A model generated the notes under the pieces. That model had not been told where the DNA came from. It did not search any database and was given only the letters and a program-made list of their open reading frames with translations. Positions 1 through 18,225 of a stretch of 64,000 nt of DNA are shown piece after piece; position 1 is the stretch's first letter, and the number at the start of each line of letters is the position of its first letter. The position numbers and the translations under genes are program-made. The stretch comes from Syntrophorhabdaceae bacterium (GTDB taxonomy: Bacteria > Desulfobacterota > Syntrophorhabdia > Syntrophorhabdales > Syntrophorhabdaceae): positions 2,912,001 to 2,976,000 of the forward strand of contig OY762209.1 in NCBI GenBank assembly GCA_963665295.1, given 5' to 3'.

Positions 1-534
1 CTTCACCACAGAACGCCCGCAACGGCTACAGTATGCTTCCTTATGCACATACCGTCTCACCACCGTGCGGGGTCTTATGACAATGTCTTCCTGCACATGC
101 TCACGGATCCCTTCCCCGGGGACAAGAGGGCCTGACCCGCAATGGGGGCATCGATCGGGAGCGGGCACGTGAACCGTCGCATCCACGCGGGCAGGCTCGG
201 GCCTGAACCACCCGGGGTGTCCGACCGGAGCGCCGCGCTTCCTCCCTGCCAAAGAGACCGCATGCTCCGGTTTTTTGTTCGCCTTGAACTGTCTTCGATG
301 CAATGCGGTATTCTTCGCCTTCAGTTCCTCGTTCTCCTTCTCTAAAAGACGGATACGCTTCATGGTGTCATCCAGCCTGTCCCGGAACACATCGATAATC
401 CGAAGATGCTCTTCGTACACCTCATGGGCCCGCTCATATTCTCCAAAGACCCATAGGGTGGAGAGAAAGTTAAGATGGGGGCAATTGTCCTTATAAAGAC
501 AATCGTAGCCGTATGGAGGATAGACCCTCTTCAC
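1..534 (-). CDS. IS66-family transposase, N-terminal part (absent from ORF track, open to window edge)
   Basis: Manual translation from GTG at 534, which overlaps the upstream TGA: MKRVYPPYGYDC...coiled coil RIRLLEKENEELK...RKRGAPVGHPGW...CPHCG...CSRCG, the IS66 linker and zinc-finger signature. Confidence 0.85.
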   Translation of the reverse strand, partial: MKRVYPPYGYDCLYKDNCPHLNFLSTLWVFGEYERAHEVYEEHLRIIDVFRDRLDDTMKRIRLLEKENEELKAKNTALHRRQFKANKKPEHAVSLAGRKRGAPVGHPGWFRPEPARVDATVHVPAPDRCPHCGSGPLVPGEGIREHVQEDIVIRPRTVVRRYVHKEAYCSRCGRSVVK

Positions 535-821
535 TCGCTCTCCTGTTTCAGTATCTCCCAGTTGATCTTAGAAAGCTTCTGTATGAGAAGCCACATCATC
601 TTGTACCGCTTCGTCATCTCCTTCGCCTTCTCGGCAATCTGTTTTCTCACATACACGGTTACGGTCTTCCCCTTCACTTTTGTGGTAAGGGAGTGGCCCG
701 TCATGGAAGGGGACTTGGCCACCGTCCCGATAAGGAAGAAATCCAGCTGTGCGACAATGTCCTCCTTAAGTCTCTCCCGCTGCCTTTTAAGAAGATCGAT
801 TTGTTCCATTGAACCCTCCAC
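531..821 (-). CDS. IS66 accessory protein (DUF6788-like)
   Basis: 96 aa basic ORF (LTTKVKGKTVTVYV), coupled to the transposase by a GTGA overlap. Confidence 0.65.
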   Translation of the reverse strand: MEGSMEQIDLLKRQRERLKEDIVAQLDFFLIGTVAKSPSMTGHSLTTKVKGKTVTVYVRKQIAEKAKEMTKRYKMMWLLIQKLSKINWEILKQESE

Positions 822-1347: not shown

Positions 1348-2358
1348 CTAGCTCCATCCTCTCCTTGCTCTCCGCAGGATTACCGCAAAGAAAGGTATGC
1401 CGATAAGGGAGGTGGTTATCCCTATGGGGATTTCCGCAGTGAGAACCATGCGGGAGACGTCATCGACCACGACAAGGTATATGGCCCCAATGAGGGCCGA
1501 GGCAGGGATGAGGACCTTGTTGTCCGGCCCCACGATCATCCTCGCGATGTGAGGGATGATAAGTCCCACCCAGCCTATCATGCCGGCGATAGCTACCGTC
1601 ATAGCGCTCATGAAGGTGGCCAGAAAGATGAGAATGAAGCGCACCCACTCCACGCGTACCCCGAGCGAACGTGCTTCCTCATCGCCCATGGATAGCGCGT
1701 TGAGGTAGCCGGAGAGCAGCGCGACCAGGCATATGGTTATCACTTGAGGTATGGCGGTAATGAACAAAATCTTCCTGTCTACGAAGGAGAGGCCGCCCAT
1801 GAGCCACCGGACGATGTCGGGAAGCTGGCTATAGGGGTCTGCCACATACTTTACGACGGAAAGGAGGGAAGTGAAAAGGGCGCTGCTTATGATCCCACCC
1901 AGTACAAGGAGGAGGAGCGTGTTCCCCTTGTGCATCTTTGCAATCCCTACCGACACCATGACCGCAACAAATCCGAATACAAAAGCGCTTGCCTGTACGA
2001 CTGCCCATTCTTTCGAAAATACCATACCGAGGGCTGCCCCAAAGGATGCCCCCGCAAGCACCCCCAGGAGTCCCGGCGACACGAGGGGGTTCAGGAACAT
2101 GGCCTGAAAGGTTGTTCCCGATACGGAAAGGCAGGCTCCGATAAGTAGGGCCGCCAGTATCCTGGGAAGGCGAACGTACATGAGCAGGTTGCCGATCACT
2201 TCGTGGCGCGCATCGTGCCCGCTCCCATGGAATATTTCCGCGAGGAAAAAACCCAGCACGTCCTTCAGAGGGACGTGGTACTTGCCCATGGTAAGGGATA
2301 CTGCCACAGCAAGAATGAGAAGCGCGGTCAGAAGAGGGAATATGCCGTACCGCTTCAT
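1348..2358 (-). CDS. FecCD/BtuC-family (MolB-like) ABC transporter permease
   Basis: RLPRILAALLIGACLSVSG, NPLVSPGLLGV, GDEEARSLG, GMIGWVGLIIPHIAR, EIPIGI motifs. Confidence 0.93.
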   Translation of the reverse strand: MKRYGIFPLLTALLILAVAVSLTMGKYHVPLKDVLGFFLAEIFHGSGHDARHEVIGNLLMYVRLPRILAALLIGACLSVSGTTFQAMFLNPLVSPGLLGVLAGASFGAALGMVFSKEWAVVQASAFVFGFVAVMVSVGIAKMHKGNTLLLLVLGGIISSALFTSLLSVVKYVADPYSQLPDIVRWLMGGLSFVDRKILFITAIPQVITICLVALLSGYLNALSMGDEEARSLGVRVEWVRFILIFLATFMSAMTVAIAGMIGWVGLIIPHIARMIVGPDNKVLIPASALIGAIYLVVVDDVSRMVLTAEIPIGITTSLIGIPFFAVILRRARRGWS

Positions 2359-2496
2359 GGCTGGAATGTCTTTCTCATCTTGCTCTTAAAGCTCCCTTAC
2401 TGTTTCCATCTTTTGCAATAGCCGTGAATGGGGTAGTCAGCCGTCCATGACAATATATCGGTGTCACTCGAAAGCCTCCGACTGATCTCCGAAGTT

Positions 2497-2555
2497 CGAT
2501 GTTCTGTAGATGACATAACGACCGTTATATATAACGGGAGTTATCCCCTCGTCAA
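2497..2555 (-). promoter_or_regulatory. Leftward promoter (-35 TTGACG) with two tandem ModE-type boxes
   Basis: Plus strand 2497-2520 CGATGTT-N10-CATAACG and 2523-2546 CGTTATA-N10-GTTATCC; CGTCAA at 2550-2555. Confidence 0.65.
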
Positions 2556-2644
2556 CACATTATTTTATCCCGCCCATGATTGCGATGAATCGATTTTGTT
2601 CAACGGGTAGACGCGTCTTCTATAAATGAACCTGCAAAAAGTGC

Positions 2645-2704
2645 TTGACACCTCGTTATAGTTTGTGCGATATAACGTACGGATATATACCTTAGAACAT
2701 AACG
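2645..2704 (+). promoter_or_regulatory. Rightward promoter (-35 TTGACA) with two tandem ModE-type boxes
   Basis: TTGACA 2645-2650; perfect inverted repeat CGTTATA-N10-TATAACG 2654-2677; GGATATA-N10-CATAACG 2681-2704. Confidence 0.75.
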
Positions 2705-2875
2705 TTCCGGGGGAATTCAACCAAACTGCAAAGCCAGTCGGCATGTTATCCGTCCATTCTCCTTTGCCCCTATATACAAGGCGCATGAGAGTAAGATGAC
2801 TGCACCTTGAGTATAGAAAAGCATTGGCTTATTTGGCCTTCTGTCATGCAAGGGCCGAATCGATGAGGAGAACCT

Positions 2876-3694
2876 ATGATCATCAAATCTCATGAACGGC
2901 AGCCGGGCGCAATGAGCCGCTTGTTTTGGGAGGATAAGGCCGCCGGGTACACCCTTCCTTTTGAGACAAGAACATTTTCACGGACATCGCGTATCCTCGA
3001 CTATATTGCCGATAACGGCATCCTCATCACCGGGGCAAGGCTCCTTGATGTAGGCTGCGGAACCGGTGCCTTTGCTCTTCCCTTTGCTCAGCGAGGGGCT
3101 TCGGTTACGGCCCTTGATATCTCAGCCAATATGTTGGAACGCCTTGCTGCAGAGGCTGAGCGTCTGCACGTTGGTCCGGTGAGGCCCATACGTATTTCAT
3201 GGAAAGCAATCGACACGAGGGAGACCGGTCTGGAGGAGGCCTTTGACATTGTGGTTTCGGCGTTCTCGGCAGCAGTAAACACGGAGGAAGATCTATTGGC
3301 AATGGAGCGATGCTCGACGAAATGGTGTGTCTCCATTGCTTCAGGCAAAATACGCCGCACCGCCCTCTGCGAGAAGATATTAGCCGATTGCGGCGCACCG
3401 TCCGACCCGAACCCCGACACGCGCAAAATCAGGAGAAAGCTGACAAAGATGGGGAGAACCTTCCGTTTCTGGTCCTTCACCGAAACAGTAGACGAGGAGA
3501 GAAATCCGAAACAGATTGCCGAGCAGGTCGTCAACCGCCTGGAAGCGGCAGGAAAAGAGTTCGACCGGGATTCAATCATCGCCAGGGTACTGGAACTGTG
3601 TGCGATTTATGGAGGAGAACGAAAGACCATCGAGTGTCATGGGAGCATTGCTGTCGGCGTACTCATGTGGAGGGTTGATGGAAGGCAAGCCTAG
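2876..3694 (+). CDS. Class I SAM-dependent methyltransferase
   Basis: LLDVGCGTG motif I, VTALDISANML, FDIVVS; RBS GAGGAG. Confidence 0.9.
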   Translation: MIIKSHERQPGAMSRLFWEDKAAGYTLPFETRTFSRTSRILDYIADNGILITGARLLDVGCGTGAFALPFAQRGASVTALDISANMLERLAAEAERLHVGPVRPIRISWKAIDTRETGLEEAFDIVVSAFSAAVNTEEDLLAMERCSTKWCVSIASGKIRRTALCEKILADCGAPSDPNPDTRKIRRKLTKMGRTFRFWSFTETVDEERNPKQIAEQVVNRLEAAGKEFDRDSIIARVLELCAIYGGERKTIECHGSIAVGVLMWRVDGRQA

Positions 3695-4760
3695 AATGGG
3701 GATGGCGCAAAGAAGGTCCGGGGCCCGTCCCCTTCTCATCATCATTCTCGCAATCACCTTCGCCGTCGCGTGGGCTCTTGTTTCCGAATCCCGGGAAATC
3801 ACGGACATGGCGGGCCGTAAAGTCATTGTGCCGGAAAAGATCAACAAGGTCTGCACGGATTGGCCTCCAGCGATGTACCTGGTCTATGTCATGGATCACT
3901 CTCTTCTGGCCGGGGTTAATGCCCGTTTTACAGACGCGCAGAGGGATTATGTGTCTGCCCATGCCCGCTCGCTTCCCGTGGTGGGCGGATTTTTCGGGCA
4001 GGGACAGACTACCAACATTGAAGCGCTTTTAGGAGTGAAACCAGACATAGTCATCGCCGAGATGTGGGGAGACAGAGCCGTGAATTCGAGGTCCGAGGAC
4101 CTTCTCGGGAGGTTCGGCATTCCGGTTGCCTATGTAAATATCGATAGGACACACGATTACCCCAATGCAATACTTTTTCTGGGAAGACTACTCGGGAGAG
4201 AGGCTCGGGCCCGCACTCTGAGCGACTACGCCAGAGGAGTGCTGGAGGAAGTCGGCCGCGCCGTCCGTTCCGTGCCCGTCGGCAAGCGTCCACGGGTCTA
4301 TTATGCGGAAGGCTCAACAGGGCTCTTCACCGAGTGTGATACGTCTGCTCATATCGAACTCATTGCCCTGGCGGGCGGCACGAATGTCCATCACCGTGAA
4401 AACGGAAAGTTCAAGGTAAAAGGCAGGGAACCTATCAGCATTGAACAGGTGCTGCGGTATGATCCTGAAGTGATTTTAGCGGCTGAACCCTCCTTTTATC
4501 AGAGCGTCTTTAAGGATGTGAAATGGCAAAACATCAAGGCAGTCAAAACCGGTCGAATCTATCTGACCCCCCGGCTCCTTTTTAACTGGTTCGACCGACC
4601 TCCTTCCGTCATGCGCCTCCTCGGCATACAATGGGTCGCCTGGCGCCTCCACCCCGAAGTCTATCGCATAAATATGGAAAAGGAAGCAAGGCGGTTCTAC
4701 CGTCTTTTCCTTGGACTCGATATACCGTCCGCCACAATGAGGGGAGTCATCGGACCGTGA
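3678..4760 (+). CDS. Class III (helical-backbone) ABC substrate-binding protein, BtuF/MolA-like
   Basis: N-terminal hydrophobic segment, ITDMAGRKV, NIEALLGVKPD, SIEQVLRYDPEVI, WQNIKAVKTGRIY, WFDRPPS; start moved to ATG 3678. Confidence 0.88.
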   Translation: MEGKPRMGMAQRRSGARPLLIIILAITFAVAWALVSESREITDMAGRKVIVPEKINKVCTDWPPAMYLVYVMDHSLLAGVNARFTDAQRDYVSAHARSLPVVGGFFGQGQTTNIEALLGVKPDIVIAEMWGDRAVNSRSEDLLGRFGIPVAYVNIDRTHDYPNAILFLGRLLGREARARTLSDYARGVLEEVGRAVRSVPVGKRPRVYYAEGSTGLFTECDTSAHIELIALAGGTNVHHRENGKFKVKGREPISIEQVLRYDPEVILAAEPSFYQSVFKDVKWQNIKAVKTGRIYLTPRLLFNWFDRPPSVMRLLGIQWVAWRLHPEVYRINMEKEARRFYRLFLGLDIPSATMRGVIGP

Positions 4761-4880
4761 AGACGGGCTCGGCACTGAAAGGTTTCTTGTCTCCTATGCA
4801 TGAAAAAAGGGTTCGCCCTTCTGTGCGAGCCCCGAAAAGTTTTCTTCCCGGCACACACATTTTCTTAAGGAGGTCGTTTC

Positions 4881-7034
4881 ATGTTGAATCTTTTTTATCT
4901 CTTCCTGACAATCGCGCTGCTCATATTTCCCGTCTCCGCATTGGCGGACGGAGAGAGGCAACCAAATAAGGTGCCCGGCTCCGGACAGACTGACCCTTCA
5001 GCCGGAGCTAATGCACAGAAGCCTTCGCTCACGTTGTCCGAAATATTCGTGACCGCAACGAAAACCGACGTTCCGTCCCAATATGCCCCTTTCACGACTT
5101 ATACGGTGGACAGAGAAAACATCGAAGCACAGCCTGATTACTTCAAGTCAAACTTTGGTTCACTCATTCAGGATCTACCCGGGGTATATGTGGGCCAGGC
5201 GCCGGACAAGAATGCGGCATGGGTAAACCTCAGAGGGACGGGAGATCCCAGCGCGAGGGTTGTCTATCTCGTGGACGGCGTGCCGGTGGGCTCCTCGATA
5301 CCGCTTACCTACTCAGTCTCCAACAATGATATAGAAAAGATCGACGTGCTCATGGGACCCTCTTCGGCCCTCTACGGCGCAAATGCATCGGGTGGCGTGG
5401 TAAACATCATTACACGGCAAGGCACAAAAGGCATGGGATCCACCATGTCATTGGGTTATGGAAGCAACAGTACCTATCGCCCTCACGCAAGCGTAGGAAA
5501 CGAGGTGTTGCGCGGCGACAATCGTTTCCACTATTACCTCTCCTACTCCGGCGACCATACTGACGGTACTCGCAACATTCCCATTGACAATTCACTAAGA
5601 ATATATTCAAAAAGTCCTTCCACGCTGAACACGTCGACAGTCAATAGTGCAGACCACGACTACAATTATCTTGCCGGGAAGGTGGGATGGAAGGGGTCAA
5701 ACGGGGAGAGTCTCACCCTTGCCTATAATTGGGCGAACATAACGATTAACGGAGGCCAGCCCAATCTCATTCCCGTTGACGACGGGAAACAGGGTGTCGG
5801 AAGTCTCAGGTTTCAGTTCCCGATTAAAGACATTATGAAAGTGACTCTCACAGGAGGACACCAGTACTGGAATAGGCCGGCAAAAACGGATTTTGGTATT
5901 TCCCTCAATAAACAGAATAATCTCGTCTTCAACTGGACCAAGCGCTACTCGCAGGAATCGAAAGTCCGGAGGATACCACTGGAACTTCAGAACGACTTCT
6001 ATCTGGGGAAGAACAACGTACTCACTGCAGGTGCTTTCTATAGCACTGAAGAGATCGATTCTGCGACGAACAATTGGGTGAATGCGAAATCCGTTTCCAA
6101 AACGAATTACAGTACAGACCAGCGAGCCGTCTACGCGCAGGACCAGGCTTTCTTCTTTGACAAGAAACTTTCCCTATTAGGGGGAATTCGCTATGACGAG
6201 TGGAAATACCACGGTATATACGACAGTGCTTCTACCCCCAAGAACCGGAGCGGCACTTCCAGTGACACCTTCACCTATCGGGGAGGCGCGAAGTACCGGA
6301 TCAACGATAATCTTGCCGTAAAGTCATCTGCCGGGACGGCATTCTACCCCGGTCTGCCGACATGGTATTTTCAAAACACCACTACCGGGACCACATGGCG
6401 TGTTGCGAACCCCGACCTCAAGCCGGAGGAAACCTGGATGGTCGATCTTGGACTGGAAGGACAATACAAGAAGACGGGCACGTCCTTCAGCACGACTGCC
6501 TATTACGGGAAAATTACTAACATGTTTTCGGGCGTCTACAGCACTCACCCTACTATCAAGGGCATTTCGCTACTCAAAATCGAAAACGTCGGCAAGGCCG
6601 AAATCTATGGCCTTGAAACCCGAGTTGAGCAACGCATCCTGGAGCGTCTTTCCGCCTCCATAAATGTCACTTTGAATCAGTCACGCATCGTCGAGGATCC
6701 CAATAATTCCGGAAATCGCGTGGCCAATACGCCCAATGTAATGGGAAACGTAACTCTAAAATACGTAAATCCGAGCCTCATCAATGGAACCCTCATATTC
6801 CGCTATGTGGCCAATCAGTTCTATGATAACGAAAACACCGGCCTTCCCTTTTACCACATGAGCCCCTATGAGACGGTGGACATGAAGATATGGCGCGACT
6901 GGAAACTGACGAACAGGAGCATATTGAGGACGGCGCTTACAATTGAGAACATCCTGGACAAGAAATTTGCCCAGGAATATGTCTACATGAATCCTGGTCG
7001 CGTCATAATGGGCGTGGCGAGTATCAATTTCTAA
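4881..7034 (+). CDS. TonB-dependent outer-membrane receptor
   Basis: Signal peptide, TonB box EIFVTAT, plug motifs (LVDGVP, IEKIDVLMGPSSALYGANASGGVVNIIT), NPDLKPEE, C-terminal Phe. Confidence 0.95.
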   Translation: MLNLFYLFLTIALLIFPVSALADGERQPNKVPGSGQTDPSAGANAQKPSLTLSEIFVTATKTDVPSQYAPFTTYTVDRENIEAQPDYFKSNFGSLIQDLPGVYVGQAPDKNAAWVNLRGTGDPSARVVYLVDGVPVGSSIPLTYSVSNNDIEKIDVLMGPSSALYGANASGGVVNIITRQGTKGMGSTMSLGYGSNSTYRPHASVGNEVLRGDNRFHYYLSYSGDHTDGTRNIPIDNSLRIYSKSPSTLNTSTVNSADHDYNYLAGKVGWKGSNGESLTLAYNWANITINGGQPNLIPVDDGKQGVGSLRFQFPIKDIMKVTLTGGHQYWNRPAKTDFGISLNKQNNLVFNWTKRYSQESKVRRIPLELQNDFYLGKNNVLTAGAFYSTEEIDSATNNWVNAKSVSKTNYSTDQRAVYAQDQAFFFDKKLSLLGGIRYDEWKYHGIYDSASTPKNRSGTSSDTFTYRGGAKYRINDNLAVKSSAGTAFYPGLPTWYFQNTTTGTTWRVANPDLKPEETWMVDLGLEGQYKKTGTSFSTTAYYGKITNMFSGVYSTHPTIKGISLLKIENVGKAEIYGLETRVEQRILERLSASINVTLNQSRIVEDPNNSGNRVANTPNVMGNVTLKYVNPSLINGTLIFRYVANQFYDNENTGLPFYHMSPYETVDMKIWRDWKLTNRSILRTALTIENILDKKFAQEYVYMNPGRVIMGVASINF

Positions 7035-7055
7035 TCTTCTTCCGGGTGAGGCGCC

Positions 7056-8243
7056 ATGAAAAAGAATGTTCTCATAAGCGTTGATCAAGCACTTGAATCT
7101 TTTCTGGATGTCGTGGACCCTCTGGAGAGAACAGTGATCATTTCTCTGGAAGATGCCGACGACAGGGTCCTGTCCAGGGACATTACCGCGCCCATGGATT
7201 ACCCCCATTACGACCAGTGTATTCTGGACGGATACGGGGTGCAGGCCGCTGATACGGTTGGTTGCGGGGAGGACTCGGGGAGAGCCCTCGCTCTCGCCGC
7301 AGGTGGCCATGTCACGAGCGGTTTCTTTAAGAGGGCCCACACGGGAGACATGTTGCCTTCCGGCGCCGACGCGCTTCTTCCTCTTGAAGTTGCGGTAGAA
7401 AAGGCCGGAGGCATTATTGCCTTCAAGGAGTTGAAAATAGGTGAATGGGTCTGGCCGAAGGGAGGCGGGATAGGCGAGGGCGATGTGGTGTACAGGAAGG
7501 GAATGCGGTTAAAGCCCACCGACATCGCCATGCTTGCCAAGCTCGGAATTTCCCACGTGGAGGCATATGACATGCCCCGCGCGCTTATAGTGCCCACCGG
7601 CGACGAGTGCATCAGGAGAGGTGAGAAGATCGAGCCGGGATTCGTCTTTGAAACAAATGGGCTTATGTGCTGCCTTCTCGTGAAGCGGTATGGCGGCCAT
7701 CCTACGCTCCACGACATAGTGGGCGACGAGGAGGAGAAATTGAAAAATGTCCTGACTGAGGGGAGCGGTTATGATCTGGTGGTCACCATCGGGGGGAGCT
7801 CCGCGAGTGCGAGGGACCTCATGGAGCGGACGGTAGCATCAATGGGGGAAGTGCTTTTTCACGGAGTTGCCTTACACCCCGGAAACCACATGGGCGCGGG
7901 TTTCATAGGAAACGGCGAAAAGAGAACGCCTGTTATTTTTCTGCCTGGTTACACCGAATCATGTGCGGTCGCTGCCTTCACCTTTGTCGATAAGGCGGTC
8001 ACGAGGCTTGGCCATTATCCCTCGTCGCGCCGGGTAGGTTCAGCGGCCGAACTCACAGGGAAAGTGACCACATCTCTCGGAGTGCGGGCGGTAAGGAAAG
8101 TCAATGTGTGCAATGGGAAGGCCCGCCCGATCAAGATGCTGGGTGAGTCGGCCCTTGAGGGAGAATTCGGGTACCTCGTGGTTCCGGAAGATCGATCCGG
8201 TTTTGAGGCAGGCGATTTTGTGGAGGTGACCTACCTGGAGTAG
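7056..8243 (+). CDS. moeA: Molybdopterin molybdotransferase MoeA-like protein (divergent)
   Basis: ISVDQAL, RVLSRDITAPMDYP, DGYGV, TGDMLPSGADA, PTGDE, TIGGSS; several conserved motifs altered. Confidence 0.8.
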   Translation: MKKNVLISVDQALESFLDVVDPLERTVIISLEDADDRVLSRDITAPMDYPHYDQCILDGYGVQAADTVGCGEDSGRALALAAGGHVTSGFFKRAHTGDMLPSGADALLPLEVAVEKAGGIIAFKELKIGEWVWPKGGGIGEGDVVYRKGMRLKPTDIAMLAKLGISHVEAYDMPRALIVPTGDECIRRGEKIEPGFVFETNGLMCCLLVKRYGGHPTLHDIVGDEEEKLKNVLTEGSGYDLVVTIGGSSASARDLMERTVASMGEVLFHGVALHPGNHMGAGFIGNGEKRTPVIFLPGYTESCAVAAFTFVDKAVTRLGHYPSSRRVGSAAELTGKVTTSLGVRAVRKVNVCNGKARPIKMLGESALEGEFGYLVVPEDRSGFEAGDFVEVTYLE

Positions 8244-8352
8244 CGGGAGTTCTACGCAAAGTGTTCCGGGTGTCGTGAGGACGATGGGAGCGGTTCCGAT
8301 ACGAGGCGGCGCATCCGGGTGAACTATTCTCAGGAGATGGAAGGAATCGGAC

Positions 8353-8922
8353 ATGGTGGACAATCTCAACAGAGTGGTTGTGGTGTATGGGACGAAGTAC
8401 GGAAGCACACAACGCTACGCGGAGTGGATTGCAGAAAGGACTCGTGCCGAAATTTTCGATGTGTCCGTATTTGACCAGTCCCGGTTCAATGAGTATGACA
8501 TGGTTTTGTTCGGGTCTCCTGTCTATATGGGACGAATAAAATATGCTCCTTTCATAAGACGCAACTGGAAGATCCTGAAAACGAAGCGAGTAGTCATCTT
8601 CAGTGTGACAGGAGTACCGCCTGACGATCTCCGCCAGGAAAAAGTGTTCCGCGCCAGCCTCCCCATTGAAATACGGCAAAAGGTTCTATATTACCCGCTT
8701 CGCGGAGCATTCAACTACAGGAACCTGACTTTTGTGGATAGGCTGCTTATGAGCGGCCCGCGAGTGAGACTGCAGGCCCTGTGCTGGATAGCGAGAGATA
8801 GAAGCGCGAGAGAATCGTTGGCCCGTTTCTACAGTCCCCTGGACTGGACGAGCGAAGCCGCGATAGAGCCGATAGTGGCACTAGTGACCTCGGGAAGGGC
8901 ACAGGCTCCGCTGGAACACTGA
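8353..8922 (+). CDS. Flavodoxin-domain protein (HemG/Flavodoxin_5-like)
   Basis: VVYGTKYGSTQRYAEWIA FMN-binding loop, GSPVYMG, LRGAFNY, DWT. Confidence 0.85.
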   Translation: MVDNLNRVVVVYGTKYGSTQRYAEWIAERTRAEIFDVSVFDQSRFNEYDMVLFGSPVYMGRIKYAPFIRRNWKILKTKRVVIFSVTGVPPDDLRQEKVFRASLPIEIRQKVLYYPLRGAFNYRNLTFVDRLLMSGPRVRLQALCWIARDRSARESLARFYSPLDWTSEAAIEPIVALVTSGRAQAPLEH

Positions 8923-8936
8923 CGTACGTCCATGCA

Positions 8937-9130
8937 ATGGAGGTCGAGGAGAAGCCCCTCCTCAAAGCCATGGGCCGGGTGTCGGCGGAGGATGCCCACG
9001 CCGGTATCGACCCGCCCCCGTCCGCCATTTCCGGTCCCCATGGGTATACGGTGAGGTCAACCGACATCAAAGGGGCGGGCCGGGCCACACCCGTGACTCT
9101 CACCATAGTCGAGACGGTGAGGGGGCAAAT
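8937..9130 (+). pseudogene. Truncated second MoeA (N-terminal fragment)
   Basis: EEKPLLKAMGRVSAED...IDPPPSAISGPHGYTVRSTDIKGA...PVTLTIVETV resembles MoeA domain I; similarity stops at the IS remnant. Confidence 0.7.
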
Positions 9131-9134
9131 CTTT

Positions 9135-9455
9135 ACGGCCTCTCGCCCAAACCCCCGGTCCCTCGTTAAACTATTCCGTTTGAATTGTTCTTGATTGTAT
9201 ACGATTAGCTGGCCTTTTAAGGAGCTTAGTGATACAATTACTCATCATGAATACAAGGATATACCTACCATGATGGGTCATCATGAGCCTCCCAGGGAAC
9301 ATCTGTTTATGTACGTAATAAGTCTTGAGAACCGGGTCCGCAAGGACCATCCGTTGAGAAAAGTCAGGGGACTCATCGACTTCGACTGCATGTATAAGGA
9401 AGTGGAAGATACCTATGGAGACAATGGCAATGTTTCCATGCCTCCCCCGGTTCCC
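9135..9455 (+). mobile_element. IS1182/IS5-like element remnant (left end plus transposase N-terminus from ATG 9270)
   Basis: MMG...LFMYVISLENRVRKDHPLRKVRGLIDF...YGDNGNVSMPP is a DUF772-type transposase N-terminus, truncated; boundaries approximate. Confidence 0.7.
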
Positions 9456-9617
9456 GATCACCGCGATTTTTTGCCTTGTGGAGGATTCGGTGATGGACTG
9501 CGCGTTTTTTGGTGTAAAATGGGATAGGAGTTATTTGCTCCCGGGTGACGGAGACGGCTTTGCCCGACGGTGCTTTTGAGCGATCCGGGGCGGACAGGGT
9601 AACATTGGAGGGGCGGG

Positions 9618-10168: not shown

Positions 10169-11830
10169 TCATCGCCCGGCAGCCTTTTCAAAGAGTGTGG
10201 CAGCTTGTTTGGGGAGATAGACCTTGTCTGTTTTCGGCGCGAGCACCGCGATACCTTCCATGGTGTATTCCGTGCCCGAAGATTTTATACGCATGATGTT
10301 CTTGCCGAGGGGGAGTTCCGCCCGGGTGCCTCCTCTCTCCACGATCAGGGAAGGGTTCGCGGGGTTTGTTTTGTCGATGGAGACGTGGGTCCCCGTATTT
10401 GCGAAGACTTTGTCGGCGGGGGCGAACAACCGGCCGTCAACGGTGGCGAGATCAAAACCGAGGGCACGGGCGACCATGTGGGCAATGCCCGTGTTCTCCA
10501 TCATGGGCAAGGATTTGTTATATCCGTAATGATAGAGGAAAACATCCTCCCCCGTGTGGCCGGACGTTGTCCACCCGATACCTACCCGCTTGCTCATCAT
10601 TCTTCCGAGGATAGGGCCCACCTTTTTTGATCCCCCCAGGGCCTTGATTTCGTCGGAACTGAGGTCTTTGATGGCATAATACTCCGCCACCACAGTTTTG
10701 ATCTTTTCCTCGGAAGGGTCCGGGCCCAGCATTCCTTCCACTCCCTCGCCGGTGAGAATGGCCTTTTTCAAAGGTCCAAACATGGCTTCGTAGGAAAGTT
10801 TCGAGTATGTCCTGTCCGTCTCCTGGCTGCCCACAGACATGCCGCCGTTGCCATGGTCGGTAAAGGCAAGCACGAGGGTCCGGTCGTCCTTTTTCGCAAA
10901 ATCAAGGGCAACGCCCACCGCGTCGTCGAAGGCGAGAACTTCACTGACGACGCCCACGGGGTCATGGGCGTGGGAGGCCCAATCCACCTTGCTCCCTTCC
11001 ACGAGGAGAAGAAAGCCTTTGGGGTTCTTCGAGAGGATTTCTATGGCCTTTTGGGTCATTTCAGCCAGCGAGGGCTCTTGGGGCCTTGCCTTCGCCCGGT
11101 CGAAATCAAAGGCCATATAGTCATCGGCGAATATGCCCCATACCTTCGTTCCCTTGACCTTCGCCATGGCCCCCTTCGTTTCCGCAAAGGCATAGCCCTT
11201 TGATCTCAGGACCTCGATGAGGTCTTCGCCGTCCGTGCGCGTTCCCCCCTTCTCTTTGGGGAGGAGGTATTTTTTTCCACCTCCGAAGACGACATCAACT
11301 CCGAGAAAGACCTGCTGCTTCGCTATTTCGTTGTAATCGGAGCGATCAGGCCAGTGGGCCGAAAAGGCGGCCGGCGTGGCGTGCTGCATGTTGACGGTGA
11401 CCACCATGCCCACCGATTTTCCCGTGAGTTTCGCGCCTTCGAGCACAGTGGCAACAGGTTTGTATTTGAGGTCTTCCGTGATGGCGGGCGCGCCCGGAAT
11501 TGTGGACGGGCCGGGCAGGACGCCGATGAATTTGTCGGATGATTTGTGGCCCGTGGCAAAAGCAGTCGCTGCGGGGGCCGAATCGGTGATGAGCGAATTG
11601 GCGCAATATGTCCTCACGCCGCCCAGGGCCATACGGTCGAGGGCGAGGGGCGAACCCTTGTACCAGCGGGAGATGGTGGTATGGGCGGAACTGCAACCGT
11701 CGGGCACCATGACGATCACATTCCTGAATTTCTTTTCCGCCGCGTATCCGGGCTCGATGAGCGAGACGGATATGAAGAGCAGTAGTATATACCATCCCGT
11801 AATGTATGCAATTCTTCCGGCTCTTGTCAT
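10169..11830 (-). CDS. Alkaline phosphatase (PhoA family), exported
   Basis: NVIVMVPDG, TDSAPAATA (catalytic Ser), HATPA, VEGSKVDWASHAHD, TDHGNGG, HTGEDV. Confidence 0.93.
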   Translation of the reverse strand: MTRAGRIAYITGWYILLLFISVSLIEPGYAAEKKFRNVIVMVPDGCSSAHTTISRWYKGSPLALDRMALGGVRTYCANSLITDSAPAATAFATGHKSSDKFIGVLPGPSTIPGAPAITEDLKYKPVATVLEGAKLTGKSVGMVVTVNMQHATPAAFSAHWPDRSDYNEIAKQQVFLGVDVVFGGGKKYLLPKEKGGTRTDGEDLIEVLRSKGYAFAETKGAMAKVKGTKVWGIFADDYMAFDFDRAKARPQEPSLAEMTQKAIEILSKNPKGFLLLVEGSKVDWASHAHDPVGVVSEVLAFDDAVGVALDFAKKDDRTLVLAFTDHGNGGMSVGSQETDRTYSKLSYEAMFGPLKKAILTGEGVEGMLGPDPSEEKIKTVVAEYYAIKDLSSDEIKALGGSKKVGPILGRMMSKRVGIGWTTSGHTGEDVFLYHYGYNKSLPMMENTGIAHMVARALGFDLATVDGRLFAPADKVFANTGTHVSIDKTNPANPSLIVERGGTRAELPLGKNIMRIKSSGTEYTMEGIAVLAPKTDKVYLPKQAATLFEKAAGR

Positions 11831-12234
11831 AACGATTTCTCCTCCCGGCCTTTTGCCGTGCAACGCAGCGCGACTAATTCTAAATCAAACAAAGCAGAAT
11901 GTGTCAAAAAAAACGACTGCCGCCTTGATTTCTCCATAACTCCCGCAGCCTCCGCCTGACCATATTTTTTTCGGGAAATGTGATCTACATCACAGACTTA
12001 TCCGGGATGAAAACGTATACGTGTAAAATACTTCCGCAAATATCATCCGTCTCGCGGAGGCCGCCTCGTACCCGAATATACGGACGGGGACGCGGCTGCG
12101 CGTGTCGTCGTGCCGTGCGGCGATTGTCGATCGGGAGGCGGCCCACGGAGTGGATGCTCATAGGGGATGACTGTTCAGGAGGCGCGGCGTCGAGCGCCTG
12201 AAATGTCTGTCCGGAATCCGAAAGGAGAGGAAGC

Positions 12235-12782: not shown

Positions 12783-14645
12783 CTATGTGTGCCCCGTATC
12801 GAGCACGGCGCGGATAGCCCGGGCTGCCTCGTTCCTTACCAGGGGCTTCATGAGAAAGCCCTTGATACCTGTGAGCTTTGCGGTCTGGGCGGAGACGGAA
12901 TCGCTGTGACCCGTGCAGAGGATGATCGGGATGTCGGGTCGTATTTTAAGGAGTTCCTCGGCAAGTTCAAGACCTGTAATCTCGGGCATGGTATGGTCGG
13001 TGAATACCAGGTCGAACCGCGACGGGTTTTTGGAGAAAGATTTCAGTGCCTCCACGCTGTCGGTCACCGCAGTTACCTTGTAGCCGAGTTTTCCGAGCAT
13101 GGTCCTGCCTAATTCCGCCAGGGTTTCTTCGTCATCCACAAAGAGAATGCGTTCTGTGCCCCGAGGGGGTTCTGCGACATCCGGGCCCGTGGAAAGGGTG
13201 TTCGCCCCGACCCTGGGGAGGAACACGCGGAACGTGGAGCCTATTCCAGGCGTGCTTTCAACGGTGATGTCCCCGTTGAGGCTCTTCACGATCCCGTACA
13301 CTACCGCAAGCCCCATGCCCGTGCCCTGGCCGAACCCCTTCGTGGTGAAGAAGGGCTCGAATATTCTTTTCATTACTTCGCCGTCTATGCCGGTGCCCGT
13401 GTCTTTTACGGTGAGCTGCACATAGGCGTCGGGGGCGAGTTGCTGGGTGAGGCTCAATGCGGGAACGGAATCCACATAAGCGAGGGCGACGCTCAAGGTC
13501 CCGCCTCCCTCATGCATGGCGTGAGCCGCGTTGGTGCAGAGGTTCATCAATATCTGTTGGACTTCGGCGGAATTTGCGAGGATCACGGCATCCTTTGCCT
13601 TAATGTCCGCGGATATCTCAATGGTGACCGGCAGAGAGGCCCTGAGCAGTTTTAACGTCTCCGTAATAAGGGTGGACAGGATGGTAGGTTTCCGCTCCCG
13701 TCCGGTCTTTCGGCTGAACGTGAGGATCTGCTGCACCAGTTCCCGCCCTCTTACCGCACTTTTGAGCACAAGCTTCAACCTGCGGTGGGCCGGACTGTCG
13801 GGCGGAGTGTCATCGAGAACAATTTCCGTAAAGCCTATTATGCCCGCGAGAATGTTGTTGAAGTCATGGGCTATCCCTCCGGCCAGGGTGCCTATGGCCT
13901 CCATCTTCTGGGATTGGCGGAGATGGGCCTCTGCCCGTTCGTGAGCGGTCAGGTCGAGACCATCTTCCATGATGCGAAATGGCGCGCCGTCTTCTCTCTG
14001 TGCGGAGTCGCCTGTAAAGTCAGGAAGACCGGCGTGCCCTGTGATTCTCGCGGTCTGCCCGTGCATCCGCTGTTCCAGTTCATCCCGCGCCTTTTGCATC
14101 TCCTCTTTTAGCCGTTCGTGCTCCGATATGTCTGTAAGAACCGCATGGATTACAGGATATCCTCCTTCCCGAGCGGCGATGCTGTCAAGTCTTACCCTTG
14201 CCGCGGCCCCTACCCGGTCTTCCAGGACGAGTTCGCAGGTCTGTTTCAGGGCACACCCCATGGTTTCCTGAACATGGCGATGGAAAATGTTCCGGAACTC
14301 CGGGAGGACGAAAGCCGAAAAGGGTTTGTCCAGGAGGGAACCTTTTTCAAAACCCATTAAGCCCGCGGCAGTGAGGTTGAGATCGTTGATGAACCCTTCA
14401 TTGTCGAAGGTGAGGAATCCTACGGGAGCAAGATCATAAAAAGCGGCATATTTCTGCGGGGCATCTTCGGCCTCGCGCTTCCGGCCCGGACTTTCGGAGC
14501 GTCCCGGTCCCGGGTCCCCGGGTCTCTCCGGGAGAGACTGTTCCGCCTCTTTTGGAGGCGTAAGATCATGCTTTGAACCTGGTCCGCTTTCGGGTATGAC
14601 CACGCCTCCGACCTCCAGCGCAAGTTTGTTGGAGCACACAACCAC
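12783..14645 (-). CDS. PAS-domain hybrid histidine kinase/response regulator
   Basis: AHDFNN H-box, NLCTNA, DTGTG, PFFTTK, GTGMGL, C-terminal receiver (FVDDE, DHTMP, KP); start uncertain. Confidence 0.92.
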   Translation of the reverse strand: MVVCSNKLALEVGGVVIPESGPGSKHDLTPPKEAEQSLPERPGDPGPGRSESPGRKREAEDAPQKYAAFYDLAPVGFLTFDNEGFINDLNLTAAGLMGFEKGSLLDKPFSAFVLPEFRNIFHRHVQETMGCALKQTCELVLEDRVGAAARVRLDSIAAREGGYPVIHAVLTDISEHERLKEEMQKARDELEQRMHGQTARITGHAGLPDFTGDSAQREDGAPFRIMEDGLDLTAHERAEAHLRQSQKMEAIGTLAGGIAHDFNNILAGIIGFTEIVLDDTPPDSPAHRRLKLVLKSAVRGRELVQQILTFSRKTGRERKPTILSTLITETLKLLRASLPVTIEISADIKAKDAVILANSAEVQQILMNLCTNAAHAMHEGGGTLSVALAYVDSVPALSLTQQLAPDAYVQLTVKDTGTGIDGEVMKRIFEPFFTTKGFGQGTGMGLAVVYGIVKSLNGDITVESTPGIGSTFRVFLPRVGANTLSTGPDVAEPPRGTERILFVDDEETLAELGRTMLGKLGYKVTAVTDSVEALKSFSKNPSRFDLVFTDHTMPEITGLELAEELLKIRPDIPIILCTGHSDSVSAQTAKLTGIKGFLMKPLVRNEAARAIRAVLDTGHT

Positions 14646-16634: not shown

Positions 16635-17423
16635 ATGATCGCATACCCCAGGATAGACCCGGTAATTCTCAAAATAGGGCCCTTGTCGCTCAGATGGTAC
16701 GGCCTTATGTATGTTGTCGGTTTTGTTTCTTCCTACCTCCTTGTGATCTATCAGATAAAGAAGGGGAAGACAAAGATAAGCCGGGCCGAGATCGATGACC
16801 TGTTCTTCTACCTGATCCTGGGCCTTATCGTGGGAGCGAGGCTCGGATACGTACTTTTTTACAACCTGAGTTTCTACCTCGAGAACCCGTCCGAGGCGCT
16901 CGTCCTGTGGCATGGCGGCATGTCGTTTCATGGCGGATTCCTGGGCGCGTTTATCGCAGGCTACATCGTGATAAAGAGAAAGCACCTCAATTTCTTCGGG
17001 ACCGCCGACCTTTTTATACCCACGTGTCCTATCGGGCTCGGATTCGGAAGGCTGGGCAACTTCATTAACGGCGAGCTTTTCGGGAAGCCGTCGGACGTGC
17101 CATGGGCAATGATATTCCCCCAGGGAGGGGCGATGCCGAGGCACCCGTCGCAACTCTACGAAGCGTTCCTGGAGGGTCTGGTAATGTTTGTCGTCCTCTG
17201 GATATACAAGGATAAAAAGAAGAGGGAGGGCGATGTCCTTGCCCTCTTCCTCGTTCTCTATGGCTGTTTCAGGGTATTCTGCGAGATGTTCAGGGAGCCC
17301 GACGTTCAGTTAGGCTATATCTTCGGCATCCTGTCAATGGGCCAGATATTGAGCATAATCATGATCCTTATCGGTCTCGGCCTGAAGTTCATATACCTTC
17401 CGCGAAGGGCGAAAGTCTCGTAA
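16635..17423 (+). CDS. lgt: Prolipoprotein diacylglyceryl transferase
   Basis: RWYGLMY, GARLGYVLFY, GGMSFHGG, GRLGNFINGELFG, RHPSQLYEA. Confidence 0.97.
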   Translation: MIAYPRIDPVILKIGPLSLRWYGLMYVVGFVSSYLLVIYQIKKGKTKISRAEIDDLFFYLILGLIVGARLGYVLFYNLSFYLENPSEALVLWHGGMSFHGGFLGAFIAGYIVIKRKHLNFFGTADLFIPTCPIGLGFGRLGNFINGELFGKPSDVPWAMIFPQGGAMPRHPSQLYEAFLEGLVMFVVLWIYKDKKKREGDVLALFLVLYGCFRVFCEMFREPDVQLGYIFGILSMGQILSIIMILIGLGLKFIYLPRRAKVS

Positions 17424-18151: not shown

Positions 18152-18225
18152 CGGGGCGTAGCGCAGTTTGGTAGCGCACTTGTATGGGGTGCAAGTGGCC
18201 GCTGGTTCAAATCCAGTCGCCCCGA
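18152..18225 (+). tRNA. tRNA-Pro(GGG), CCA not encoded
   Basis: Acceptor CGGGGCG/CGCCCCG, D-arm TAGCGCAGTTTGGTAGCGC, anticodon arm CTTGT-ATGGGGT-GCAAG, T-loop GGTTCAAATCC. Confidence 0.95.

Follow-up and report, generated by a model that had tools for sequence, protein, structure and literature searches.

Porins are the presumed entry route of molybdate and tungstate through the outer membrane, and the locus described here raises the question of whether these metals might also be taken up by an energised route. It occupies positions 1348-9194 of a 64,000-nucleotide stretch (hereafter, the window) of the genome of an anaerobic Syntrophorhabdaceae bacterium (contig OY762209.1, positions 2,912,001 to 2,976,000), in which a gene for a FecCD-type permease on the minus strand diverges from a plus-strand unit encoding an S-adenosylmethionine (SAM)-dependent methyltransferase-fold protein (MT), a class III periplasmic binding protein (BP), a TonB-dependent receptor (TBDR), a MoeA-family paralog, a flavodoxin-like protein (Fld), and a second moeA fragment. 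This gene set had been listed in a sequence-only reading of the window, and an open reading frame (ORF) list and profile scans found all of the genes in place. The locus would be a starvation module for molybdenum and tungsten (Mo/W) that belongs to a ModE-type regulon and in which TonB-dependent acquisition is coupled to a divergent MoeA; we consider this reading probable because the operator is common to the locus and to modABC and because the gene order is conserved, with a clean negative control. The module most likely pulls scarce Mo/W across both membranes to a cofactor-loading enzyme of its own, by a route so far undescribed for either metal: literature searches, the coverage of which was incomplete, found no paper describing a TonB-dependent receptor for molybdate or tungstate.

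The case for Mo/W control begins with the 517-bp region shared by the divergent genes (2359-2875). Here, CGTTATAGTTTGTGCGATATAACG at 2654-2677 is an exact fit to CGNTATA-N10-TATANCG, the core of the ModE consensus, for which a passage of PMC545781 gives atCGnTATATA-N6-TATATAnCGat in both E. coli and Geobacter sulfurreducens. It is the only match with at most one mismatch in the window, where shuffled sequences lead one to expect 0.03. A second palindrome, CCGTTATATATAACGG at 2522-2537, consists of two abutting half-sites of the same type, and these two elements bear out the earlier claim that the shared control region contains ModE-type operators. Pairs of half-sites within 40 bp form seven clusters in the 5.5-Mb genome, against around 1.2 expected, and two of the seven are in this region. 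A promoter scan called no sigma-70 consensus in the control region; a TTGACA at 2645-2650, which overlaps the box, might be the -35 element of a promoter overlapping it.

Control of the operon by B12 or iron was also considered and was rejected on the grounds that the control region holds neither a riboswitch nor a Fur box. Apart from one tRNA, no Rfam family matched the window at its gathering score, and none matched at E ≤ 1 in 2300-5000; in the same scans, the control region showed no cobalamin or molybdenum cofactor (Moco) riboswitch, and the delta-proteobacterial Fur pattern is absent from it at up to three mismatches. The only match to that pattern in the window (17354-17372; three mismatches; 0.02 expected) lies around 800 bp upstream of a tRNA gene (18152-18225).

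The regulon itself was delineated with a simple match to the pattern CGNTATA-N10-TATANCG. The genome contains 13 matches with at most one mismatch, two of them exact, as against around 2.6 expected on our own scaling of the window shuffles. Six of the 13 lie within around 200 bp upstream of five operons, that of the window among them, and a seventh is inside the Mo island described below. The second exact box is 28 bp upstream of modA-modB-modC (SBP_bac_11/BPD_transp_1/ABC_tran+TOBE) at C1:2675971; exbB-exbD, which comes immediately after a second modABC set, has two boxes 36-90 bp upstream; one is around 130 bp upstream of a receptor gene (C1:169856) that is followed by tonB (TonB_C at L002:8619-9770); and one is around 100 bp upstream of a third receptor gene (C1:2560613). 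Three of the eight Plug-domain receptors of the genome, the window's included, are behind a box. Since the same motif precedes modABC, the box marks a molybdate-transport regulon in this genome, and the Mo/W-type control proposed in the sequence-only reading is supported by this distribution. The only ModE homolog of the genome (C1:197683-198021, 112-115 amino acids (aa)) consists of a helix-turn-helix (HTH) domain, and a separate TOBE/Mop ORF (C1:181522-181710) adjoins modA. An HTH-only ModE is known in Desulfovibrio, according to a part of PMC545781. Two one-mismatch boxes, at C1:1121790 and C1:1264097 (L004 and L005), one of them upstream of a gene for a 522-aa protein with RNA_pol_A_CTD and Sigma70_r4 domains and the other upstream of small ORFs without a Pfam match, are either regulon members or chance matches.

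The TonB-dependent import module proposed in the sequence-only reading is likewise supported, by the receptor, binding protein and FecCD permease. What that reading missed is that the locus has no ATPase and is flanked by insertion sequences (IS), that the second moeA is a remnant, and that TonB/ExbBD, an ATPase and a second module lie in a distant Mo island (C1:168-188 kb; 168000-188700), 2.7 Mb from the window locus. This island contains, in order, a box and genes for a TBDR, TonB, FmdE, a methyltransferase, a binding protein, a FecCD permease and an ATPase; these are followed by a TP_methylase/Oxidored_molyb-like fusion (586 aa, with an Oxidored_molyb-like N-terminus and a TP_methylase domain), an amino-acid permease, Mop, modABC, two boxes, exbB, exbD and a radical SAM protein. 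At the end of the island are genes for a 382-433-aa protein without a Pfam match and for a CxxCxxCC protein. The window permease is 73% identical to the FecCD protein of the island (C1:176347-177357), which is followed by the gene for the genome's only close ATPase of this type (C1:177357-178130), and the window binding protein is 45% identical to that of the island. Among the genes of the two sets, those for the MoeA paralog and the Flavodoxin_5 protein occur only at the window locus. Since this locus lacks an ATPase, TonB and ExbBD and since a paralogous set exists in the Mo island, it is probably a second, paralogous module that must borrow these three components from the island.

The conservation of the cluster was followed with the receptor as query (E ≤ 1e-30) in 95 other genomes of the order, five of which have homologs. 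In three of the five receptor loci (L018, L019 and L020), the order MT-BP-TBDR-MoeA-Fld is kept at 45-68% identity (63-68% for the receptors); L033 was taken as the same contig as L020, having the same matches and mirrored boxes. L018, L019, L020, L040, L034 and L042 each have a methyltransferase ortholog (43-57% identity) at the corresponding place, and a Flavodoxin_5 protein (51-63%) is encoded behind the MoeA paralog in L018, L019, L020 and L040. The linkage of receptor and moeA, the conservation of which the sequence-only reading had set in advance as a neighbourhood check, holds in L018-L020 and L040. Upstream of the methyltransferase gene, four box sites with at most two mismatches are found in L019 and four in L020, one of the latter exact. 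In L018, there is one long operon, TBDR2-MT2-BP-BP-FecCD-ATPase-MT-BP-TBDR-MoeA-Fld-radical SAM-unknown-CMD, the end of which adjoins exbBD and modABC, diverging from two boxes. The 382-aa protein encoded behind the radical SAM gene (L018:5021-6169) was examined as a possible hidden binding-protein domain and was rejected, since it has no Pfam match at E ≤ 1 and does not resemble the radical SAM/Peripla_BP_2 fusion of L041 described below.

In another locus of the order (L021:9715-17679, genome G022), a 50%-identical receptor heads an operon with SBP_bac_5, two permeases and two ATPases, which ends with a methyltransferase 30-32% identical to that of the window, so that the pairing of receptor and methyltransferase recurs there with a different class of importer.

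The negative control comes from the MoeA paralog. Among 5.8 billion proteins, it has 31 relatives at 46-71% identity, after which there is a gap to ordinary MoeAs at 30-32%; the named relatives are from Syntrophorhabdaceae or Geobacteraceae, and PF03454 (MoeA_C) was not detected in the subfamily relatives and is present in the ordinary MoeAs. The subfamily occurs in two of the 401 genomes of a phylum sample, the window genome counted (E ≤ 1e-70). With the subfamily alignment, 80 metagenome loci were found, nine of them at 44% identity or more and 71 at 39% or less. In none of these 71 ordinary MoeA loci is MoeA accompanied by a binding protein, a FecCD permease, a methyltransferase, a receptor or a flavodoxin, and eight have a generic ABC ATPase match only. 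Five of the nine subfamily loci (L043, L044, L045, L047 and L102) are short contigs with little flank, on which no query genes were found.

The subfamily loci with longer flanks vary around the same components. In L040, FecCD-ATPase-MT-BP-TBDR-MoeA-Fld all face the same way, and a TonB gene lies past them; L042 has a box, MT, FecCD, ATPase, FmdE, ExbD, TonB, MT, BP and MoeA; L034 (Syntrophorhabdus Bin006) has TBDR-MT-MoeA-BP, a weak box, TBDR-BP-MT and XdhC; and L046 has a modA-type transporter, an F420-type formate dehydrogenase, MoeA, an ECF-type transporter with an Oxidored_molyb protein, and FmdE. In L041, which comprises BP, MT, MT, a radical SAM/Peripla_BP_2 fusion, MoeA, a second MoeA, a box and a Plug-domain receptor, the fusion protein (L041:2792-4582; Peripla_BP_2 29.4 bits, cut-off 27.5) is apparently cytoplasmic and is encoded directly upstream of the subfamily MoeA; since a radical SAM domain is fused here to Peripla_BP_2, this arrangement is a hint that radical SAM enzymes can act on what this family of binding proteins binds. 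The methyltransferase is present in almost every related locus, often twice, and on this basis is a core part of the module.

The subfamily also extends to archaea. On a contig of a Methanocella metagenome-assembled genome (L035, 2790-19652), a subfamily MoeA 41% identical to that of the window has as neighbours two FecCD proteins, three Pfam-scored binding proteins and two binding-protein-like tblastn matches, an ATPase, two FmdE, two DUF364 proteins, a radical SAM protein (BATS), methyltransferases including an O-methyltransferase-like one, and an Oxidored_q6/Fer4 pair. To judge from these gene sets, the inner-membrane part and its MoeA cross the divide between bacteria and archaea, and the receptor would be a diderm addition. 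DUF364 has been tied by genome context to the transport of Mo, W and V, according to a passage of PMC2954201; a DUF364 gene of Methanococcus is within a modABC operon and is cofit with nifH, as stated in a section of bioRxiv 10.1101/2024.03.05.583561; and the one characterised DUF364 enzyme cyclises a SAM derivative, according to an excerpt of PMC12930334.

The MoeA paralog itself (7056-8243, plus strand, 395 aa; MoeA_N 9.7e-30, MoCF_biosynth 3e-21) aligns end to end, to residue 392, with Pyrococcus MoeA (around 1e-42; structures 1WU2, 1UZ5 and 1XI8) and aligns with E. coli MoeA (1G8L) at around 4e-32. The core motifs DGY, (H)TG, PTGDE and GGxS...RD are kept. A Pfam scan found no PF03454 match in it, and it falls below the NCBIfam cut-offs for MoeA (PRK14498, 261.6 versus 534; PRK10680, 164.2 versus 440; Glp, 194.3 versus 475). 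We take the active-site residues of E. coli MoeA to be D59, T100, D142, E188, D228, K275, K279 and P298/P301, and of these, D59, T100, E188 and D228 have counterparts in the paralog. Unlike E. coli MoeA, which has other residues at these positions, the subfamily has an invariant H51 in an alignment of 28 members, and C55, C91 and H95 in 26-27 of the 28. The position of D142 is occupied across the subfamily by small or varied residues; KPGKP has become HPGNH in 22 of the 28 members, the other six, Methanocella included, keeping (K/R)PG(R/K)P; and PGNP has become PGY(T/A) in most. This Cys/His-enriched cleft suggests, as far as an alignment can, a changed metal species or partner.

The other proteins of the locus were also compared with characterised ones. 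The permease (1348-2358, minus strand) is a type II ABC protein (Pfam FecCD 3.5e-79). The binding protein (3696-4760, plus strand; Peripla_BP_2 7.8e-19) belongs to cluster A and has an N-terminal signal or anchor; its ORF is open from a TTG at 3516, and the start is likely the ATG at 3696, two bases past the methyltransferase stop, where the signal-like N-terminus begins. It matches PDB 4PAG, titled 'periplasmic binding protein', at 1.1e-78, and MolA (HI_1472; 3PSA/3PSH) at 1.1e-14, ahead of BtuF (around 1e-4) and heme binders. The receptor (4881-7034, plus strand, 717 aa; Plug PF07715 8.4e-20, barrel TonB_dep_Rec PF00593 3.2e-40) exceeds no NCBIfam specificity cut-off (BtuB, siderophore, heme, CntO and others), its best match being TIGR01783 (144.9 bits, cut-off 223.5), with TonB-B12 at 122.3 (cut-off 599.7), and no close relative of it was found among solved structures, which match the plug only. 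The methyltransferase (2876-3694, plus strand; Methyltransf_25 4.6e-14) is the product of the operon's first gene and has a class I fold with a C-terminal lid. With its AF2 model (pLDDT 89.9), Foldseek returned small-molecule methyltransferases with a lid, the dithiol S-methyltransferases TmtA and GtmA coming first, in a flat ranking (TM 0.56-0.63); the ESM Atlas placed it no more closely than in 'class I SAM-dependent methyltransferase' clusters, and tblastn against plasmids gave two generic matches in unrelated contexts. The Flavodoxin_5 protein (8353-8922, plus strand; PF12724 1e-23) has a HemG-like flavodoxin fold.

Which known systems does this locus resemble? One is MolBC-A of Haemophilus influenzae (HI1470/HI1471/HI1472), a type II ABC importer of molybdate and tungstate, as described in parts of PMC4245157 and PMC4031551. 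Like it, the window locus combines a FecCD permease with a class III binding protein that matches MolA; unlike the window locus, MolBC-A lacks a receptor in the outer membrane, and also a MoeA, a methyltransferase and a flavodoxin. Moreover, the window locus has no ATPase, the MolA match is in two stretches of which the C-terminal lobe alone is strong, and 4PAG is far closer to the window binding protein than MolA is.

Another is the uncharacterised, accessory ymgE-treA operon of E. coli, annotated as iron transport, which in the one chromosome examined (O157:H7) encodes a TBDR, ModD, a SAM methyltransferase, an ATPase, a FecCD permease and a binding protein, and which has an exact ModE-type box 25 bp upstream of its first gene; box, type II ABC set, methyltransferase and TonB receptor are together here too, with ModD in place of the MoeA and flavodoxin of the window. 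The Mo-island operon matches it in the methyltransferase (32%, 2e-34), binding protein (29%, 2e-37), FecCD permease (40%) and ATPase (40%). The window proteins compare differently: since the receptor has no match at E ≤ 1e-3, the methyltransferase matches only locally (7e-05), and the binding protein is 25% identical, the window module is a paralogous second type rather than an ortholog of ymgE-treA.

The regulon has the operator core of the ModE-modABC regulon of E. coli and Geobacter sulfurreducens, also before modABC; unlike that regulon, it reaches TonB/ExbBD and three receptors, and its regulator is HTH-only, with Mop encoded apart. Receptor operons with a metal-handling enzyme of their own in the cytoplasm, such as the hmu-type heme loci with a CobN-like protein, follow the same logic of a TonB receptor, binding protein, type II ABC importer and cytoplasmic chelatase-family protein, and a 43%-identical receptor homolog is in such a CobN/ChlI/ChlD locus (L022); the window locus differs in the metal, the enzyme family (MoeA) and the regulator. 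The novelty of the locus lies in its dedicated subfamily of MoeA and in the extension of that subfamily to methanogens.

From homology and context, the following sequence of events may be proposed. When Mo/W is sufficient, a ModE-type repressor, apparently split between the HTH-only ModE homolog and the Mop/TOBE protein encoded beside modA, would bind to 2522-2537 and 2654-2677 and shut both divergent units. In metal shortage, the operon would be derepressed along with modABC, exbBD and the two further receptor operons. The TBDR would then capture scarce Mo/W species at the cell surface, powered by the TonB, ExbB and ExbD of the Mo island, and the MolA-related binding protein would pass these species to the FecCD permease, which would use the island ATPase. 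The cytoplasmic steps are conjectural: the MoeA paralog might load the metal onto molybdopterin or strip its carrier, and the flavodoxin-like protein and the SAM enzyme might act on the carrier or ligands of the metal.

An important question is the form in which the metal is imported. The sequence-only reading had argued that the need for a TonB receptor implies a larger substrate. This does not follow: TonB-dependent receptors also transport bare metal ions, and MolA binds the free oxyanion. The kinship with MolA and the E. coli relative that carries modD incline towards an oxyanion. A complexed or organic ligand is hinted at by the occurrence of several paralogs of the binding protein at a single locus, by the boxed receptors, of which there are three different ones, and by enzymes of the SAM and radical SAM type, one of them fused to a binding-protein domain. 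In our estimation, a chelated or thio-form of the metal comes near to an even chance, free molybdate or tungstate at trace level is somewhat less probable, and a pterin cofactor is distinctly the least probable of these substrates. A more speculative version, to which we give a rather low probability, is that an organic Mo/W carrier is imported (a molybdophore or tungstophore, a thiometalate complex or a foreign pterin cofactor), that the Cys/His-rich MoeA is a trans-metallase acting onto the cell's own molybdopterin, and that the flavodoxin and the methyltransferase, which resembles dithiol methyltransferases, dispose of or recycle the carrier. If true, this would be the first metallophore-type pathway of Mo/W acquisition with a dedicated cytoplasmic hand-over enzyme, common to syntrophic bacteria and methanogenic archaea.

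Syntrophs of the Syntrophorhabdus type, like the methanogens with which they associate, depend on W/Mo enzymes such as formate dehydrogenases, aldehyde oxidoreductases and class II benzoyl-CoA reductase. Both live in sulfidic, metal-poor settings, where an energised, starvation-induced uptake with its own MoeA could set bounds to methanogenesis and to the degradation of aromatic compounds. With its related operon, E. coli is a tractable organism in which to test such a system, and the new Cys/His residues of the MoeA subfamily pose the question of how one metal, or one form of a metal, is chosen for the cofactor.

Several observations weigh against a Mo/W-starvation module. As regards the regulon, six of the 13 boxes are beside unrelated or unknown genes and may be there by chance; no box at up to two mismatches occurs in L040, whose operon is the most complete, nor is there one in L035 (at up to two mismatches) or L046 (at up to one); and the sole ModE homolog has no Mop domains and scores below the cut-off (TIGR00637, 73.3 bits versus 98.5), which is why the binder of the box and the signal it senses are inferred. 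As regards conservation, no receptor homolog is present in the three same-genus genomes searched (93-100% complete), and the cluster, which occurs in only five of 96 genomes of the order with this one counted, is accessory, not core; receptor homologs with 50% and 43% identity sit in other contexts (Opp/Nik-type ABC and CobN/ChlI/ChlD), so that below around 60% identity the receptor family serves other systems. As regards the enzyme, the window MoeA has, in comparison with that of E. coli, Gly for D142, His for K275, Asn for K279, HPGNH for KPGKP and PGYT for PGNP; since several residues important in E. coli MoeA are lost, the paralog may not be an insertase at all. Moreover, MoeA is encoded in full length at four other places in the genome, which also holds two each of moaA and moaC; because of these, the window MoeA is an extra, specialised copy and the organism is independent of cofactor salvage. 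Finally, there is no ATPase gene behind the permease gene, 822-1347 being without a long ORF, and the window copy, ATPase-less and framed by IS, may be a decaying duplicate.

The independence from salvage bears on the alternative that survives best, namely that the receptor and type II importer take up molybdopterin, Moco or the tungsten cofactor, that MoeA removes or exchanges the metal, that the methyltransferase caps the dithiolene, and that the flavodoxin handles the redox chemistry; this differs from a Mo/W acquisition module only in the substrate. TonB receptors and type II ABC importers typically carry ligands of the size of cofactors, and the MoCF_biosynth domain, according to its Pfam description, binds molybdopterin. 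The modelled resemblance of the methyltransferase to the dithiol methyltransferases TmtA and GtmA speaks for salvage, although the Foldseek ranking is flat, with TM at around 0.6. The TP_methylase/Oxidored_molyb-like fusion of the Mo island and the radical SAM/Peripla_BP_2 fusion beside a subfamily MoeA in L041 also speak for salvage, as do the pterin- or flavin-type ligands proposed for DUF364 from genome context in a part of PMC2954201. However, the genome makes its own cofactor, and a bare oxyanion is the ligand of MolA, to which, among characterised proteins, the binding protein is most closely related. We also know of no bacterial Moco uptake, though no search was aimed at it. Salvage is therefore, in our view, unlikely.

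Another possibility, which we rate as slightly less probable again, is that the window copy is a non-functional leftover translocated by IS elements, with the Mo island at C1:168-188 kb as the system that works. The flanks are indeed IS debris on both sides: at 1-821 (minus strand), a fragment of an IS66-family transposase (NF033517, 9.1e-05) with a DUF6788 ORF (1.6e-06), and at 9195-9527 (plus strand), a fragment of an IS1182-family transposase (NF033551, 3e-05, profile positions 5-55 of 488). These flanks, with the absence of the cluster from the three same-genus genomes, suggest a recent relocation or acquisition of the locus; the orphan permease and the truncated second moeA would also suit a leftover, and in G047 the counterparts form one contiguous operon beside modABC/exbBD. 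The second moeA fragment that the sequence-only reading had reported does exist, as an 85-aa MoeA_N ORF at 8937-9194 (plus strand; profile positions 19-71 only, 30.8 bits). It is, however, 30% identical to the intact window MoeA over 50 residues (E 0.015) and is the dead N-terminal remnant of a different moeA gene, ending beside the IS1182 fragment. Against a leftover, the five tightly packed plus-strand genes, from the methyltransferase to the Flavodoxin_5 gene, and the permease gene are full-length and free of stops, the operators are intact, with an exact box, and the ATPase, TonB and ExbBD of the island can serve in trans, the permeases being 73% identical. Furthermore, the genome has no second copy of this MoeA gene or of the Flavodoxin_5 gene, and the locus is therefore non-redundant.

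That this is an ordinary iron-chelate, heme or corrinoid cluster that merely lies beside MoeA, with boxes due to chance or to an unrelated regulator, is very improbable: the best NCBIfam names do point that way, as the sequence-only reading had expected of automated annotation (BtuC, TonB-siderophore, TonB-hemin, IsdE and BtuF, all far below cut-off, and, for the methyltransferase, the corrinoid-protein-associated CpaM, 64.7 versus 180 bits), as does the 43%-identical receptor in a CobN/ChlID heme-type context, but the control region has no cobalamin riboswitch or Fur box at the thresholds given above, the same box precedes modABC, order and boxes are kept across genera, and in other loci the accompanying genes encode FmdE, XdhC, ModA, formate dehydrogenase and a second MoeA, such neighbours being found in none of the 71 ordinary MoeA loci.

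Downstream of the locus, the window contains genes for an alkaline phosphatase (10169-11863, minus strand) and a hybrid PAS histidine kinase/response regulator (12783-14645, minus strand), neither of which recurs beside the annotated related loci.

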